Assembly (NCBI GenBank): GCA_035546815.1
Contig: DASZWB010000001.1
Coordinates: 20,667 to 84,666, forward strand
Reading direction: 5' to 3'
From: Candidatus Saccharimonadales bacterium
GTDB lineage: Bacteria > Patescibacteriota > Saccharimonadia > Saccharimonadales > UBA4665
Length of the DNA stretch: 64,000 bases
Of the stretch, positions 14,330-50,524 are shown one piece after another (the first letter of the stretch is position 1; the number at the start of each line of letters is the position of its first letter). A program made the position numbers and the translations under genes. The notes under the pieces are model-generated. The model was not told the origin of the DNA and did not search any database. It worked only from the letters and a program-made list of their open reading frames with translations.

Positions 14330-14403
14330 TGGTGCGAGATACGGGAATCGGACCCGTGCCCCTTGCTTGGGAAGCAAATGTACTACCATTATACTAATCT
14401 CGC
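14330..14403 (-). tRNA. tRNA-Gly (anticodon CCC)
   Basis: The reverse strand reads GCGAGAT..TTTGC-TTCCCAA-GCAAG..CACGG-GTCCGATT..ATCTCGC-A-CCA. The cloverleaf folds by hand. Confidence 0.85.
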
Positions 14404-14409
14404 AAAATG

Positions 14410-14485
14410 TGGAGCCACCTAGCAGGATCGAACTGCTGACCTGCGCGTTACGAATGCGCCGCTCTACCAACTGAGCTAAGGTGGC
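14410..14485 (-). tRNA. tRNA-Thr (anticodon CGT)
   Basis: The reverse strand reads GCCACCT-TA-GCTC-AGTTGGTA-GAGC-G-GCGCA-TTCGTAA-CGCGC-AGGTC-AGCAG-TTCGATC-CTGCT-AGGTGGC-T-CCA, with one A-C mismatch at 31-39. Confidence 0.85.
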
Positions 14486-14566
14486 AAATCAGTCTGTATT
14501 ATAGCAGTTGCTAACAACCGCGAAAATTGTTACTATTACCCCTGTCTTTTCATCGTATGGTGACGC

Positions 14567-14643
14567 GGGCTCGTAGTGAAGAGGCCTATCACGCCTCCCT
14601 GTCACGGAGGAGATCGCCGGTTCGAATCCGGTCGGGCCCGCCA
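14567..14643 (+). tRNA. tRNA-Asp (anticodon GTC)
   Basis: GGGCTCG..CCTCC-CTGTCAC-GGAGG..GCCGG-TTCGAAT-CCGGT-CGGGCCC-G-CCA. Confidence 0.9.
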
Positions 14644-18997: not shown

Positions 18998-21133
18998 ATG
19001 ACACAAAAACACTCTATCCTAAAAAAATTTCCGCTTTACATTGTGGCGCTGCTGGTGGCGTCGTGTAGTTTGCTGCCGCTGGCCGCGGCTGACAGCGGTT
19101 GCGACAGCCTTGATTTCAACGGCGGATCAGGCACCGCGGCGGACCCATGGCAAGTAAACACCGCCGCCCAACTCGACAACGTGCGCGATTGCCTGGGCAG
19201 CGGCACGCTGAGCTATTATTTTGTACAAACCGCCAATATCAACTTGGGTGTAGCACCGTATAATCAAGACACCGGCTGGACGCCGCTCGGCAACAGCGCC
19301 GCGCCGTTTTACGGTTTTTACGATGGCGCCGGCCACACGATAAGCGGACTTGATATAAACCAGCCAACTGACGCGACTACCTCCAGCAACCCGGCCGCCT
19401 TCGGCCTCGGCCTGTTTGGGTACACGCAAAATGCTACCATTATGAACCTGGCTGTCACCGGCGCCAGCCTAACTGGCAGCGGCACGATGGGCGGCCTGAT
19501 AGGCTCGGCGACCGGAACTAATATTTATAATTCCTCCGCGGCCGGCAGTCTGGAGGGACGGTACCGGCTGGGCGGTCTGGCCGGCTTTGCCAGCGGCGGC
19601 ACGATCTTCAGCAGCCACTCCGGCATCAACATCAAGGGTGACGGCAGCCAGAACACCACCGGCAGCGACCCGACGCAGCAATCGTATCAACAAGGCGGCT
19701 TGGTGGGCTACCTGGGGTCAAACGGCGCCATCATTCGCTCTTATGCCAGCGGCAATATCAGCGGTTACCAAGTAGGCGATACCCGCGAACAAGTCGGCGG
19801 GCTGGTGGGCGGGCTCTGGGGAGCTCAGAGCAGTATCCTCGACAGTTACGCGACCGGCGCGGTGGACGGCGGCAAATATAGTACCGGCGGGCTGGTGGGC
19901 CGCGTCGGCTCCAGTACGGCCTCCATCAATAATAGCTTTGCGACCGGCGCCGTAACCGGTGTAAGCGGCCAGACCGGCGGCTTGGTGGGCGGCACGGCGG
20001 GCACCATTGCCTATGCCGGTGCCGACAATTTTTGGGATGAAGACACCACCACCTTGACCGTCTCGGGCGGCACCGCCGAAACCGGCGAAACGACCGCTGA
20101 GATGAAAGACAGCGCAACCTTTACGGCGGCCGGCTGGGATTTCGACGCCATCTGGACCATCGACTCCTCCACGAACGGCGGCTATCCCTTCCTGCAGCCG
20201 GCCTACGCGGTCGTCCCCATCGCGGCCGGCAACGGCACCATCAGCCCTTCGACCATGCAGATCGCCGGCGCCGGCCAGAGTCTTGCCTTTACCATGACGC
20301 CCGCCAGCGGCTACGGCGACAGCGTTAGCGGCACTTGCAGCGGCACCCTGTCGGCCGGCGTCTTCACAACTGATTCAACCAATCAAGCCTGTACGGTGAT
20401 TGACAGTTTCCCGCCGAACACCTATAGCGTTACTTTCGACACGCAGGGCGGCTCGAGTGTGGCGCCCCTGTCGCAGGCCTATACCGGCACCATCAGTCTG
20501 CCAGCCGCGCCGACGCGCGCCCATTATACTTTTACCGGCTGGAACACCGCGGCTGACGGCAGCGGCACCAGCTACAATGCCGGCGACAGCTTTAGTATGC
20601 CGCTCAACGGCACCACCCTTTATGCCCAATGGTCGCCTCAGCAATACAGCCTGCAGTACAGCGCTGGCAGCGGCGGCTCGGTGACTGGTTCTGCCTCCCA
20701 AACCGTTACCTATGGTGCCGACGGCGCGGCAATCACGGCCGTGCCGGACGCCGGCTACAAGTTCACTGGCTGGAGTGACGGCGTGACCGCCAACCCGCGG
20801 ACCGACCGCGCGATCAGCCAGGATATATCTGTTACGGCAGAGTTCGCGCCCCTGGCCGGCCCTGTCTCAGCCGGCCCTGTCAATAAGTCGACGGTGACCT
20901 CAAAGGTGGCGGCTGGTCAGGCTCAGGCGGCTCAATTTTTTGCCATCGCTTCGCCCACAGCTTCATCGAAGGCAGCAAGTCCTTCCGCCGCCCGCCAGGT
21001 AGCCCAGGCAGCCGCACCGCTCAACAGCCGTAAATCAAGCGCCGACAACTGGGTCATCCTCGTGGCCGTCAGCCTTATGCTCGCTCTGTTCCTCATTCTG
21101 GTGTTCCGCCGCCGGCGCGCTGACAAACAGTAA
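18998..21133 (+). CDS. Large surface protein with GLUG-type repeats and Listeria-Bacteroides (Flg_new/InlB B-repeat) domains, C-terminal TM anchor
   Basis: Signal peptide, then repeated GGL(I/A/V)G motifs (GLUG-like). YSVTFDTQGGSSV...YTFTGWNTAADGSGTSYNAGDSF...LYAQW and YKFTGWSDGV are Listeria-Bacteroides repeats. The protein ends in a TM segment plus RRRRADKQ. Confidence 0.65.
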   Translation: MTQKHSILKKFPLYIVALLVASCSLLPLAAADSGCDSLDFNGGSGTAADPWQVNTAAQLDNVRDCLGSGTLSYYFVQTANINLGVAPYNQDTGWTPLGNSAAPFYGFYDGAGHTISGLDINQPTDATTSSNPAAFGLGLFGYTQNATIMNLAVTGASLTGSGTMGGLIGSATGTNIYNSSAAGSLEGRYRLGGLAGFASGGTIFSSHSGINIKGDGSQNTTGSDPTQQSYQQGGLVGYLGSNGAIIRSYASGNISGYQVGDTREQVGGLVGGLWGAQSSILDSYATGAVDGGKYSTGGLVGRVGSSTASINNSFATGAVTGVSGQTGGLVGGTAGTIAYAGADNFWDEDTTTLTVSGGTAETGETTAEMKDSATFTAAGWDFDAIWTIDSSTNGGYPFLQPAYAVVPIAAGNGTISPSTMQIAGAGQSLAFTMTPASGYGDSVSGTCSGTLSAGVFTTDSTNQACTVIDSFPPNTYSVTFDTQGGSSVAPLSQAYTGTISLPAAPTRAHYTFTGWNTAADGSGTSYNAGDSFSMPLNGTTLYAQWSPQQYSLQYSAGSGGSVTGSASQTVTYGADGAAITAVPDAGYKFTGWSDGVTANPRTDRAISQDISVTAEFAPLAGPVSAGPVNKSTVTSKVAAGQAQAAQFFAIASPTASSKAASPSAARQVAQAAAPLNSRKSSADNWVILVAVSLMLALFLILVFRRRRADKQ

Positions 21134-46885: not shown

Positions 46886-47407
46886 CTAAATAGCCAGCAT
46901 TTTGCGCAGGGTTTTGATGTTACGGTTAGTGTTGAAATTTCTGTATTTGGCCTTGGCGAGCGTTTTGCCGAAGGAGCTGCGCAGCGTCAGGCCCTGATCG
47001 ACGCGCCAGTAGATGACGCCGCGGCCGGTTTGGACTTTTTCGCCCCTGCCGAGTTCAAAATCGTCAGCCAAAATGGCCTTTTCTAGCCCGTTTTCGATAA
47101 AGATCACATAGTCATGCTGCTTGCTGCTAGCGGTGCCGAACGGATAGCCGTCAACGATTGCCCGGAGCCGCTCAAGCGGCACGACTTGGACGATGGCCGG
47201 ATAAGCAAAGGTTTTGGTCAGCGCGGCTTCGATCAATTTTTTTAAGTCAGCGGCCGCAGCATCGCTCTCAAAGACGACATTGCCGGATTGCAGCAGCGTA
47301 GCCACATTATGCAAACCGGCCTTGTCCAGACAAACGCGCAAATCGGCCATTTTGACGACCCGCCCGCCCACGTTAATACCGCGCAGAAACGCCGCGTAGC
47401 GCGCCAT
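46886..47407 (-). CDS. DUF1697 domain protein
   Basis: MARYAAFLRGINVGGRVVKMADLRVCL is the DUF1697 signature N-terminus. Confidence 0.75.
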   Translation of the reverse strand: MARYAAFLRGINVGGRVVKMADLRVCLDKAGLHNVATLLQSGNVVFESDAAAADLKKLIEAALTKTFAYPAIVQVVPLERLRAIVDGYPFGTASSKQHDYVIFIENGLEKAILADDFELGRGEKVQTGRGVIYWRVDQGLTLRSSFGKTLAKAKYRNFNTNRNIKTLRKMLAI

Positions 47408-47572
47408 TTATTGCTTCGGCGTTTGCCGGCGCACCACCAGCACGTCGTAGACGAAAATGATGGCCGCCAGCACCAGAGCGATGTAAATCAGCGCTCCCAA
47501 AATGTGCAGGAAGACGCCGATCAGCCAAATCAGCACCAGCACGGCCGCGATAGTTAATAAAATATTTCCCAT
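47408..47572 (-). CDS. lmo0937-family small membrane protein
   Basis: MGNILLTIAAVLVLIWLIGVFLHILGALIYIALVLAAIIFVYDVLV. Start set at the ATG lying 6 nt after a TACAAT box. The track start at 47590 is the alternative. Confidence 0.55.
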   Translation of the reverse strand: MGNILLTIAAVLVLIWLIGVFLHILGALIYIALVLAAIIFVYDVLVVRRQTPKQ

Positions 47573-47605
47573 GCCCTCATTGTAACGCATCTAACGATAA
47601 GAATG

Positions 47606-47620
47606 TGACATGTCAGATTG
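47606..47620. repeat. Terminal inverted repeat, unit 1 left (TGACATGTCAGATTG)
   Basis: Perfect reverse complement of 48343-48357 and identical to 48555-48569. The core TGACATGTCA is itself a 10-nt palindrome. Confidence 0.95.
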
Positions 47621-48342
47621 CGGCGCGGAACTGGTGGCGGGGAGAGCGAAAACCGCTCAGGCTAGGCTCTCCCCGCACCAGTGCTTGTGTTCGTCCTGCT
47701 CTCGGACCTATCGGTATCGGAGCCGTGACACCGTTGATAGGACCGCTGCTATGTTGCGTGAACACCTGGTTAGGTCATACCCCGTGACTACGCTTGTCAG
47801 CACGACCGAGGCGCGTGGCCGTTTGCCAGCACGGCTCCAGATGAACACTCGCCTAACGAACTGCGGCTTTAGCCCGATGGACCACGGGTCATGAAGCGAC
47901 ACAGTTCGGCGTGGGTAGAAGTAGTACAAGCGGGCGGCGCGAGAAGACCTACGAAGGCGGCGGAGAGGAGGACCTCAAAACCACCAGCTTCGGAGCCGGA
48001 AGGTTGCCTTGTAACGCTCCGTCTCGTCTTCTCGCGCTCAGCCCGGGCTAGAGGCGCCGCATCCTCGCGAATTGGCAGGGAGATTCGCGAATCAATTGCA
48101 CACGCCCCCTCACTGGCGCAGCGGACACTGATTCGGGTAATGGCCGCGCGCCAGCAAGTGTGGCAATTGGTGACTACTTGGCTGTCGTCAGCTCCTCCGG
48201 CGGAACTTTATAACGATAACTTCGCTTCCGCTCCTTACGGACGCCCCAGTGCTTGGGACGGCACGGATGACGCAACTTAAATAGACTTCTCATGGCTCTT
48301 CTCCCTTGTGCCCGTTTTGCGCTATTACAAAAAACACAACTA

Positions 48343-48357
48343 CAATCTGACATGTCA
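48343..48357. repeat. Terminal inverted repeat, unit 1 right (CAATCTGACATGTCA)
   Basis: Perfect reverse complement of 47606-47620 and identical to 49278-49292. Confidence 0.95.
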
Positions 48358-48429
48358 AGGTGCTAACCTCGGAAAAACTGCGAACTACCTTGAGCTCAAG
48401 CGGCCTCTCAATCCAAAATTAGTACTATA

Positions 48430-48458
48430 ATTAAACGCTAGCTTAAAGAAAATGTCAA
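48430..48458 (-). promoter_or_regulatory. Promoter P1: TTGACA-N17-TTTAAT reading toward unit 1
   Basis: -35 is the complement of 48453-48458 and -10 the complement of 48430-48435. Boxes and spacer length match the second copy exactly, while the spacer sequence differs. Confidence 0.55.
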
Positions 48459-48554
48459 TGGTGCGGCACTTGCGGCACCTTAGACGAAGTATTATTGAAT
48501 TATTCGAACTGCCAGCGGCATCTCTCAAAGCCAATAATTAATGATTATGGAAAA

Positions 48555-48569
48555 TGACATGTCAGATTG
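48555..48569. repeat. Terminal inverted repeat, unit 2 left (TGACATGTCAGATTG)
   Basis: Perfect reverse complement of 49278-49292. Confidence 0.95.
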
Positions 48570-49128
48570 ATGGGGGCGAAGCGGCTAAAGGTTTGAGAAA
48601 GCGGCGCGGGGAGAGTGAGTCTTCGCGGGGCGAAGTAACCAGATTCCGGACAAATCCAGTCGTGCTACTCACTCTCCCGTTGCCGGCTTTGGTTTACATC
48701 CGCTTTACACGAACCCTGTCTCGGTGGGAGGCGCCAAACGGCACTTGAGACGATAGGCCCGCCGCCTGGGCGATGAAATGCCCGTACGTTACGCGGATAC
48801 CTCCACTCCCGAACACCATCGGGGGCGAAGCCTTTGAAAACTCAAAAAGCAAAATAGAGACCCGAGCGACGAGAAAGCCCCCCAAACTTAGGGACAGGCT
48901 GTGTGTGTATCACTCGCACTGCCCAGTGCGTGCCTGCAACCTTCCGGATTCTTTTGGAACCTTTCCGGTATCGCTTTCTCGCGCTCGGTATCTCTCCCCC
49001 TGTAATGACGCGCACGGCGGACTCTGATGAAGTACCAACTACCTGCATCGGAGCACAACTTGGGCCGTGGGCGCCTTACTGCCTGTTACGACGGTACTTA
49101 TCCCTCCCAGGAGTAACCGTCCAGGCAA

Positions 49129-49160
49129 GTTTTGCGGTTTTGCGGTTTTGCGATTTTGCC
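49129..49160. repeat. Tandem octamer repeat (GTTTTGCG x3 plus ATTTTGCC) inside unit 2
   Basis: Read directly from the sequence: gttttgcg gttttgcg gttttgcg attttgcc. Unit 1 has a single GTTTTGCG at the equivalent end (48313-48320). Confidence 0.9.
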
Positions 49161-49277
49161 TTAGCAAAAAGGACTCAAACTTTTGACATTATCAGAATAC
49201 GAGCAAAGCGGCGGCGCGAGTGGCTGCTCGGCGGCTGCGCTGGTCGTATCCCAATAATATCGCTTGCGCGGTTCAAA

Positions 49278-49292
49278 CAATCTGACATGTCA
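49278..49292. repeat. Terminal inverted repeat, unit 2 right (CAATCTGACATGTCA)
   Basis: Perfect reverse complement of 48555-48569. Confidence 0.95.
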
Positions 49293-49378
49293 AAGTGCTA
49301 ACCTCGGGGAATACACGGCGAATCCAGGCTTTTCGTGCGCGGACTCCAGCCGGTCTCTCGACCCAAAATTGCTATATT

Positions 49379-49407
49379 ATTAAACGCCTCTCGAGAGAAA
49401 ATGTCAA
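49379..49407 (-). promoter_or_regulatory. Promoter P2: TTGACA-N17-TTTAAT reading toward unit 2
   Basis: -35 is the complement of 49402-49407 and -10 the complement of 49379-49384, with a 17-nt spacer. The flanking ACCA and GCG bases are also conserved with P1. Confidence 0.55.
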
Positions 49408-49441
49408 TGGTTCGGCCGCTCGGATGGTAAAATAAAACTCT

Positions 49442-50524
49442 ATGGCACTCTCTATCGGCATCGTCGGGCTGCCCAATGTTGGCAAGTCTACCCTGTTTAA
49501 CGCCCTGACCGGCAGCAATATTTTGGCGGCTAATTATCCGTTTGCGACCATTGAGCCGAATACCGGCATTGTGCCGGTGCCGGACCCGCGGCTGGCTAGG
49601 CTCGGCGAGTTATATAAGACTAATAAAATCGTGCCGGCCACGGTGACGTTTGTGGACATTGCCGGGCTGGTGGCCGGCGCCAGCGAGGGCGAAGGGCTCG
49701 GCAATCAGTTTTTGAGCCATATCCGCAGCACCGACGCCATCGTGCAGGTGGTGCGGGCTTTTGACGATGCCAATGTGACGCATGTTGACGCGGCGCGCGA
49801 ACCATTGCGCGACATCGAGGTCATCAATACCGAGCTAGTGCTTGCCGATTTGCAAACCGTCGCCAAGCGCCTGCCGAAGCTCGAAAAAGAGGCCCGCGCC
49901 GACCCGAAATTGAAGCCGCTGATGGCGACTTACCAGCAGGTGAACACTTTGCTTAATCAGGGCCAGCCGCTCTGGAATCACCCTGAAGTCAACCGCGATC
50001 ACCTTGCCGACTTGCACCTTTTGACCATGAAGCCGGTTATTTACTTGTTCAATCTGGATGAGGCCGGCTTGGGCGATGGTTCAACCCGCGGCGCGCTGCA
50101 GCAACTGGTGGCGCCGGCCCGGGCGCTGTTCGTCTGCGCCAAGTTGGAGAGCGAATTGAAGGATCTGGACGCTGCGGACGCCGCCGAGCTGCTGGCAAGC
50201 TACGGCCAAACCGAATCGGGTCTGGTGCAGCTGATCCATGCCGCTTATGGCACGCTCGGCCTGCAAAGTTTTCTGACGGCCGGCGAAAAAGAGGTCCGCG
50301 CCTGGACGATTCCGGCGGGCGCCACGGCGCCGCAAGCGGCCGGCGTCATTCACGGCGACTTTGAGCGCGGCTTTATTGCCGCCGACGTAGTGAGCTACGA
50401 CGACCTGCTGGCCGCCGGTTCCCTGGCCGCCGCCCGCGCCGCCGGCAAAGTCCGCACCGAAGGCAAAGGCTACATTATGCAGCCCGACGACGTGGTGGAA
50501 TTCAAATTTAATGTTTCTAAATAA
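49442..50524 (+). CDS. ychF: Ribosome-binding ATPase YchF
   Basis: MALSIGIVGLPNVGKSTLFNALT...ANYPFATIEPNTG... plus a C-terminal TGS-like domain. 360 aa. Confidence 0.9.
   Translation: MALSIGIVGLPNVGKSTLFNALTGSNILAANYPFATIEPNTGIVPVPDPRLARLGELYKTNKIVPATVTFVDIAGLVAGASEGEGLGNQFLSHIRSTDAIVQVVRAFDDANVTHVDAAREPLRDIEVINTELVLADLQTVAKRLPKLEKEARADPKLKPLMATYQQVNTLLNQGQPLWNHPEVNRDHLADLHLLTMKPVIYLFNLDEAGLGDGSTRGALQQLVAPARALFVCAKLESELKDLDAADAAELLASYGQTESGLVQLIHAAYGTLGLQSFLTAGEKEVRAWTIPAGATAPQAAGVIHGDFERGFIAADVVSYDDLLAAGSLAAARAAGKVRTEGKGYIMQPDDVVEFKFNVSK

Follow-up and report, generated by a model that had tools for sequence, protein, structure and literature searches.

The DNA analysed here, called the window throughout, is a 64,000-nt stretch (positions 20,667 to 84,666 of contig DASZWB010000001.1, forward strand) from Candidatus Saccharimonadales bacterium, which belongs to an order of ultra-small episymbionts with reduced genomes. 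One part of it has the gene order MFS, MMPL, DUF1697, DUF5670, W1, W2, ychF, bPH protein and Crp-family regulator, where W1 and W2 (units 1 and 2) are two tandem segments, each flanked by a perfect 15-mer inverted repeat, TGACATGTCAGATTG/CAATCTGACATGTCA. These two segments are the subject of this report. Judged by comparison with related sequences, W1 and W2 are genes for large structured non-coding RNAs, and each appears to have its own promoter, leader and closing helix, a combination referred to below as the frame. The genes adjoining the pair are:

46886-47407, minus strand: DUF1697 gene
47408-47590, minus strand: DUF5670 gene
49442-50524, plus strand: ychF

A first-pass annotation of this stretch, made from its letters, had placed a near-consensus promoter on the minus strand ahead of each unit. 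Direct reading confirmed the box coordinates, the hexamers and the 17-nt spacer with differing sequences that it had described: TTGACA-N17-TTTAAT stands at 48458-48430 for unit 1 and at 49407-49379 for unit 2, and the two spacers, TTTTCTTTAAGCTAGCG and TTTTCTCTCGAGAGGCG, have only their first six or seven bases in common. The motifs it had listed downstream of the -10 (TATAG, AATTTTGG and GAGAG.CCG) are present in both leaders, and both leaders do end in CCGAGGTTAGCAC(C/T)T beside the inverted repeat. When the whole window was searched for the 29-nt pattern TTGACA-N17-TTTAAT, two matches were returned, both on the minus strand and both belonging to these units; 100 dinucleotide-preserving shuffles contained none, giving an expectation of 0 in the window. 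The promoter elements are:

49402-49407, minus strand: -35 box TTGACA of unit 2 (W2), from direct reading, with a TTGACA-like counterpart in 21 of 23 related units
49379-49384, minus strand: -10 box TTTAAT of unit 2, 17 nt from the -35; predicted start at about 49372-49373
48453-48458, minus strand: -35 box TTGACA of unit 1 (W1), from direct reading, the pattern search and the promoter table of the relatives
48430-48435, minus strand: -10 box TTTAAT of unit 1; predicted start at about 48423

Both window promoters agree with the sigma-70 consensus at 11 of 12 positions, the mismatch falling on what is normally the most critical one. TTTAAT matches the -10 consensus at five of six positions and has T at position 2, where the consensus has A; a consensus sigma-70 scan passes over both promoters because its rule needs that A.

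Three routes led to related units. Scanning 185,579 species genomes for GCACNTTGACATGTCAGATTG yielded 9 loci, whose labels comprise eight Saccharimonadales/Saccharibacteria, one Patescibacteria and one unclassified metagenome-assembled genome, and a scan of metagenome contigs for the same pattern gave 11 further loci. The third route was independent of the RNA sequence and went through the neighbourhoods of DUF1697 homologues of 59-82% identity. The total set is 23 units from Saccharimonadales genomes and metagenomes, on ~20 contigs, and seven of them are unselected on RNA sequence because they were reached through the synteny of the adjoining DUF1697 gene. Twelve units of 0.54-0.75 kb have no consistent open reading frame (ORF), namely W1, W2, L003, L004, L008, L010, L011a/b, L014, L016 and L033a/b, and all twelve sit between divergently transcribed ychF and DUF5670/DUF1697. 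Since L011 holds a tandem pair in the same order as the window, the duplication must be old. The ychF-DUF1697 spacer has no unit in L015 (120 nt) and L017 (36 nt); as the promoter is missing there too, the module is present or absent as a block. No frame was found in L012, L013, L019 and L032, where DUF1697 lies in other contexts or with unrelated genes.

The spacer itself was observed to be a variable hot spot among Saccharimonadales (L015:3881-4000, L017:3965-4000, L013, L019 and L028), holding nothing, one or two RNA units, framed adhesin/sortase cassettes, or unrelated membrane-protein genes. An IS200/IS605-type Y1 transposase gene lies ~3.2 kb downstream of DUF1697 at L017:7693-8253 and L018:4275-4835, and the genome with that gene has an empty ychF-DUF1697 site.

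The first-pass annotation had proposed two independently promoted transcripts running toward lower coordinates while leaving their orientation unproven, and four kinds of comparative evidence support that proposal. The promoter layout (a TTGACA-like -35, a spacer of 16-18 nt and a -10) recurs in 21 of the 23 units, with 18 exact TTGACA boxes and three with one mismatch; the promoter table itself covers 21 units, 19 of them with the layout (16 exact and three one-mismatch -35 boxes), and L033a/b, both exact, were added separately. Spacers in the relatives are 16-18 nt long, mostly 17, and unrelated in sequence, so that length is kept and letters are not. The basal stem of the leader, GCAAUUUUGGG/CCCnnAnnUUAGC, has U.G in some units and U-A in others at four positions, and at a fifth it varies between G-C and G.U; the stem pairs on the minus strand only, because the plus-strand equivalents would be A.C mismatches. 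Minimum free energy was lower on the sense than on the antisense strand in 8/8 orthologues, the consensus folding energy of these eight was -71.9 kcal/mol sense versus -52.1 kcal/mol antisense, and the folding z-scores were -6.1 versus -4.4 for W1 and -6.6 versus -4.9 for W2. Finally, in the relatives whose units carry genes, every ORF runs in the direction of the promoter. The minus-strand reading is thus well supported by comparison. A plus-strand promoter was considered and rejected: the TATAAT/TATTAT that the first-pass annotation had seen there without a good -35 indeed has none, and moreover it is not kept in the orthologues. A second, internal -35 supplied by the TTGACA of the 5' arm was also rejected, as no consistent -10 lies 16-18 nt downstream of it.

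The -10 box divides the set by type. It is TTTAAT in 11 of the 12 ORF-less units, while the coding-type units, at equal spacing, mostly have a canonical TAnnnT (TACTAT, TAAAAT, TACATT, TATAGT or TAGAAT). The promoter is ordinary except for this conserved non-canonical -10; since the -11 A is normally essential, its conserved absence suggests that the promoter is weak or specially regulated.

Every leader starts a single long hairpin 6-9 nt past the -10, where transcription is predicted to begin. For both full window transcripts, the minimum-free-energy fold includes the leader hairpin as well as the long-range pairing of the arms described below. The leader elements in the window are:

49297-49372, minus strand: leader hairpin of unit 2, with basal stem GCAAUUUUGGG/CCCGAGGUUAGC and U.G/U-A exchanges
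49341-49353 and 49316-49325, minus strand: inner GCUnGAG...UUCGC bulged-stem motif of unit 2, from the leader comparison
48363-48422, minus strand: leader hairpin of unit 1, with basal stem CUAAUUUUGG/CCGAGGUUAG
48392-48403 and 48378-48388, minus strand: inner bulged-stem motif of unit 1, from the leader comparison

Two further details of the leaders were noted. A bulged-stem motif, GC-UN-GAG...UUC-GC, occurs beneath variable apical loops in 17 of the 23 units, and an unpaired GCACnUU linker ahead of the arm helix is conserved. Both look like protein-binding features, and neither could be assigned to a known motif. A search of the window with the leader covariance model (R1) scored only the two known leaders. 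Among the relatives, the same model gave a weak match at L001:3267-3353 (23.7 bits, E ~0.003), just downstream of the L001 cassette; this is possibly another framed cassette whose arms have diverged.

The arms of the inverted repeat lie at 47606-47620/48343-48357 (W1) and 48555-48569/49278-49292 (W2). A search of the window for the arm gave six matches (four exact, and two overlapping ones with two mismatches) against 0.04 expected. The first-pass annotation had taken note of the repeat as a boundary; what it missed is that the repeat fits a sense-strand RNA helix, here called P1, which would close a large structured RNA. Its strands are:

49278-49293, minus strand: P1 5' strand of unit 2, UUGACAUGUCAGAUUG, from the arm search, the P1 comparison and the fold
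48555-48569, minus strand: P1 3' strand of unit 2, CAAUCUGACAUGUCA, followed by UUUU at 48551-48554
48343-48358, minus strand: P1 5' strand of unit 1, from the arm search, the fold and the P1 comparison
47606-47620, minus strand: P1 3' strand of unit 1, from the arm search, the fold and the P1 comparison

P1 closes the window units over 14-15 bp and is 14-17 bp long across the whole set. Its 14-nt core is identical in 10/10 ORF-less units outside L033, five of which are known solely through DUF1697 synteny. In L033, a distant relative, the arms are GACATGTCGGATTA/TAATCCGACATGTC in the first unit and GACATGTTGGATCG/CGATCCAACATGTC in the second, complementary within each unit, with five compensated pairs that differ between the tandem units and a palindromic core that is broken in L033b. 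One further compensated pair was found in L009b, and U.G pairs occur as the outer pair in six units and as an internal pair in L001. Over the 23 units, seven P1 pairs are altered on both sides, a count matched by 0/500 shuffles. Because P1 covaries in L033, the arms are expected to pair with each other, and this covariation argues against three other views of the arms: independent palindromic operators, transposon ends, and the sites of one shared invertase.

The last of these would make the arms site-specific recombinase sites and the units invertible, phase-variable segments behind a fixed promoter. Perfect 15-bp inverted repeats lie around each unit, the cargo in relatives includes a surface protein and a sortase, a classic subject of phase variation, and the arms are far more conserved than the interior. 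Inverted repeats downstream of a promoter, with surface protein as the cargo in relatives, recall the Clostridioides difficile cwpV switch. The orientation relative to the promoter is nevertheless constant in 23/23 units, as judged by the sense ORFs or, in the ORF-less units, by the 5' position of the hairpin P2. The arm sequence of L033a is not that of L033b, though within either unit the two arms match, which one shared invertase would not bring about, and the arms tolerate U.G on the sense strand only. Neither the window nor 10 syntenic loci showed a recombinase gene near the units, where the neighbours are ychF, bPH, Crp, DUF5670, DUF1697, MMPL, MarR and MFS genes, although the enzyme could be encoded elsewhere. 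Inversion would also leave the covarying structure of the ORF-less bodies unexplained, and we regard it as distinctly improbable.

Alternatively, each arm could be an independent palindromic operator, TGACATGTCA, for instance for the Crp-family protein encoded two genes away, which would put all framed units in one regulon and make the inverted repeat incidental. The arm core is indeed a perfect 10-bp palindrome, an invariant TT before GACA goes beyond what pairing requires (column 7 is unpaired in 23/23 units), and the Crp-family gene is syntenic in the window, L010, L015-L017, L028 and L033. What an operator would not account for is the non-palindromic AGATTG, which is kept, inverted, at both ends; and L033b has lost the palindrome (GACATGTT / AACATGTC) without any loss of complementarity between its arms. 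A 10-bp palindrome with no central spacer is also unlike the known Crp/Fnr sites. Operators are therefore a very improbable account of the arms.

The window units are predicted RNAs of 740-754 nt, with P1-enclosed bodies of ~710-720 nt. The elements of the bodies are:

48570-49277, minus strand: RNA body of unit 2, with no conserved ORF, from RNAalifold and folds
49233-49260 with 49186-49212, minus strand: P2 of unit 2, a long 5' hairpin
48972-48989 with 48860-48878, minus strand: long-range helix H6 of unit 2
48607-48679, minus strand: 3' G-rich/C-rich hairpin of unit 2
47621-48342, minus strand: RNA body of unit 1, with no conserved ORF
48026-48037 with 47937-47948, minus strand: H6 of unit 1
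47633-47679, minus strand: 3' hairpin of unit 1

Recurring elements are P2, H6 (strands CGAGAAAGC/GCUUUCUCG in W2 and GCGCGAGAAGAC/GUCUUCUCGCGC in W1) and a 3' hairpin of the type GGGGAGnGUGAG.../...CUCACnCUCCCC, followed by a C-rich tail. The interiors of W1 and W2 are almost unalignable. RNAalifold on eight W2-type orthologues gave 82 pairs, 31 of them with compensatory double changes. Of the cells in paired columns, 90.9% were paired, compared to 40-45% when partners were slid by 1-3 columns, and the covariation observed in the body was reached by 0/500 shuffles.

The twelve ORF-less units share no conserved ORF. Sense ORFs seen in one orthologue do not recur at the same place or in the same frame in another, and frames of >=18 codons, when cross-compared, match only at leader and P1 nucleotides. 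Plus-strand ORFs of 129 and 132 codons inside the units had no Pfam match. Although preceded by a good ribosome-binding site, AAGGGAG, a 39-codon ORF in unit 1, MRSLFKLRHPCRPKHWGVRKERKRSYRYKVPPEELTTAK (48293-48174, minus strand), is probably no gene, since it lies in a ~85-nt insertion specific to W1 that is absent from the orthologue L011b. Unit 2 was also found to contain an 8-nt tandem repeat, GTTTTGCG, in ~3.5 copies (CGCAAAAC on the RNA strand) at 49129-49159, within a W2-specific insertion that has no counterpart in seven orthologues (alignment columns ~150-200). A retron or a diversity-generating retroelement was also considered and set aside: the neighbouring genes in the window and the syntenic loci include no reverse transcriptase, and no template/variable repeat was found, as nothing resembling the unit interiors turned up in the rest of the window or in the coding cassettes.

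Short ORF-less segments of 0.6-0.75 kb with perfect terminal inverted repeats, occurring in tandem and polymorphic for presence at the ychF-DUF1697 site, also recall miniature inverted-repeat transposable elements (MITEs) and Correia-type elements, transcripts of which can form RNase III substrates. The units would then be non-autonomous mobile elements and the promoter a chance neighbour or an outward-facing feature. Yet no target-site duplication, in the form of a direct repeat, stands beside the arms, and the 64 kb hold only four arms. Copies in the same genome have interiors that are almost unalignable, while orthologues at the same site have diverged and keep their structure by compensatory change. 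The promoter and leader lie outside the repeats, and yet they are conserved and are inserted or deleted with the unit. Phage and plasmid collections (BLAST with the whole region) and viral contigs (pattern scan) gave no match. A mobile element is accordingly hard to credit here.

The frame is not confined to the RNA genes. Eleven units of 0.95-3.2 kb hold sense ORFs, separated from the 5' arm by 130-210 nt and from the 3' arm by ~100-150 nt. The product of the first ORF has either a signal peptide or a membrane anchor, along with regions rich in Thr, Ser and Pro, and in L028b and L030 Pfam finds Big_9, cadherin-like and PKD domains in it. A second ORF, present in only some of the units, encodes a sortase, with Pfam Sortase matching at E = 3e-11 in L007 and, weakly, at 5e-4 in L030. 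In L028, two such coding cassettes lie directly beside ychF, at the site that the RNA genes occupy in the window. We found no sequence similarity between ORF-less and coding interiors; common to both kinds are the promoter, the 5' hairpin, the GCACnUU linker, P1 and the 3' G-rich hairpin. Since it is reused around adhesin/sortase mRNAs, sometimes at the ychF site, the frame is a reusable expression module. In six coding units (L001, L005, L006, L007, L028b and L030), the arm core was also seen to recur in part, as ACA(A)UGUC, 25-35 nt upstream of the 3' arm and with a small hairpin after it; this copy could offer the 3' arm a local alternative pairing.

Taking these observations together, we propose, with a probability of roughly 0.7, that W1 and W2 are two tandem, anciently duplicated, minus-strand genes for large RNAs, set in a promoter-leader-P1 frame that acts as an end-sequestering clamp. 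What comparison of the sequences itself shows is the promoter footprint, the strand on which the genes are read, the hairpin of the leader, P1 as a real helix, a structured body with no conserved ORF, and the reuse of the frame on other cargo. Each gene would be transcribed from a sigma-70-type promoter, with predicted starts ~7 nt past the -10, near 49372 and 48423. The first 60-76 nt would fold into a 5'-terminal bulged hairpin, and 3-4 nt beyond it UUGACAUGUCAGAUUG would pair with CAAUCUGACAUGUCA, ~0.7 kb downstream, so that P1 closes the body and can stack on the leader hairpin. Both ends of the transcript would thereby be tucked away, the 5' end at the base of the hairpin and the 3' end in P1. 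Such a frame may protect against end-dependent decay, give a defined duplex for processing, or both, and we infer a processing and/or stability clamp similar to an rRNA processing stalk or a 5' stabiliser hairpin. The two RNAs of the window would be non-coding cargo of this reusable frame.

Several points weigh against this proposal. TTTAAT does not have the -11 A normally needed by sigma-70 promoters, and the consensus scan ignores both sites, so the window promoters may be weak or specially regulated. The fold tested for the body came from the same alignment, which inflates the agreement between them, and the slid-partner control is a partial answer to this. P1 covariation comes mainly from one distant genome (L033), together with the L009b pair and the G.U of L001, and P1 in L028b simply loses two outer pairs. 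At 14-17 bp, P1 is shorter than a typical RNase III substrate. Pairing alone does not account for the strong conservation of P1 and of the unpaired GCACnUU, and this conservation suggests recognition by a sequence-specific factor. At the 3' end, a terminator scan found no classical intrinsic terminator after the units, and the DUF5670 start codon lies within 15 nt of the 3' arm of unit 1, so that read-through is possible.

Read-through leads to another explanation, in which the units are long cis-acting 5' leaders of DUF5670/DUF1697, or else decayed adhesin cassettes whose frame alone is under selection. The spacing and the missing terminator would suit a leader, as would L016, where DUF1697 starts ~11 nt after the arm, and the coding cassettes of L028 at the same site would suit decay. 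A U-tract follows P1 in seven units, however, and P1 may therefore also mark the 3' end. The gene downstream of the unit in L003, L004 and L008 carries a TATAAT of its own, at a position suited to a leaderless mRNA, and DUF1697 occurs without any unit in L015 and L017. Decay would not keep 31 compensatory pairs, nor do the ORF-less interiors resemble the coding ones. We consider this explanation, in either form, unlikely.

A further-reaching reading, which we hold to be rather doubtful as it stands, is that the frame is a clade-specific RNA address tag giving framed transcripts a common fate through a sequence-specific factor, with the large RNAs tuning the adhesin/sortase cassettes. The factor would read the closing helix, the GCACnUU linker and the bulged hairpin at the 5' end; the common fates might include processing, protection, localisation or even export at host contact; and the ORF-less framed RNAs could act as competitors or scaffolds that tune adhesin/sortase expression. 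If true, this would be a new architecture of post-transcriptional regulon built around a new class of large RNA.

A close parallel to an end-sequestering clamp is found in rRNA operons, in which a promoter and structured leader precede flanking sequences that pair over a long range around the mature RNA and are cleaved by RNase III. The window units likewise have a promoter, a structured leader and a long-range helix bracketing a structured RNA. Unlike rRNA stalks, their helix is only 14-17 bp, the RNAs match no Rfam family, and the frame also brackets mRNAs. Fold-back of 5' and 3' ends is also known from hok mRNA (tac/fbi) and from the icaR 5' and 3' untranslated regions (with RNase III), where it controls stability or processing in single genes and involves the ribosome-binding region. 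Here, too, the two ends of one transcript would pair over hundreds of nucleotides, but P1 lies 130-210 nt upstream of the start codons in coding units, and one sequence is used on many cargoes. In size (~600-800 nt), absence of ORFs, many covarying helices and narrow range, W1 and W2 resemble OLE, GOLLD and ROOL (PMC12286853). They differ from these in giving no covariance-model match up to E = 10, in having no phage association and in their Saccharimonadales host. A dedicated 5' leader hairpin, and a promoter, leader and closing helix common to coding cassettes, further set them apart.

Searches against Rfam at gathering score returned only tRNAs from the window and 9 loci, and with E up to 10 the best match in the unit region reached 20 bits against a cut-off of 88. 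Neither the RNA nor the frame was described in the literature we searched (structured or non-coding RNA in Saccharibacteria, Patescibacteria and the candidate phyla radiation, sortase transcriptomes, and GOLLD/ROOL), which leaves novelty unproven. On this evidence, W1 and W2 appear to be an undescribed RNA family in Saccharimonadales.

Large structured bacterial RNAs without known function are rare and have repeatedly opened new biology. That 1.6 kb of non-coding RNA genes is kept in a reduced episymbiont genome implies an important role. Through the shared promoter, hairpin and helix, genes for attachment at the cell surface would be linked in their expression to a non-coding RNA, as the adhesin/sortase cassettes presumably serve attachment of the episymbiont to its hosts. 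For annotation, the repeat units here would be entered as genes, not as mobile elements.

Three minor observations concern other genes. Upstream of ychF, an apparent extended -10, TGGTAAAAT (49425-49444, plus strand), ends 8 nt ahead of the ATG, a proximity that suggests a leaderless or nearly leaderless mRNA. In L003, L004 and L008, the TATAAT of DUF1697 stands 6-7 nt ahead of its ATG. Far from the RNA units and unrelated to them, three tRNA genes (Gly-CCC, Thr-CGT and Asp-GTC) lie on opposite strands at 14330-14643 of the window.

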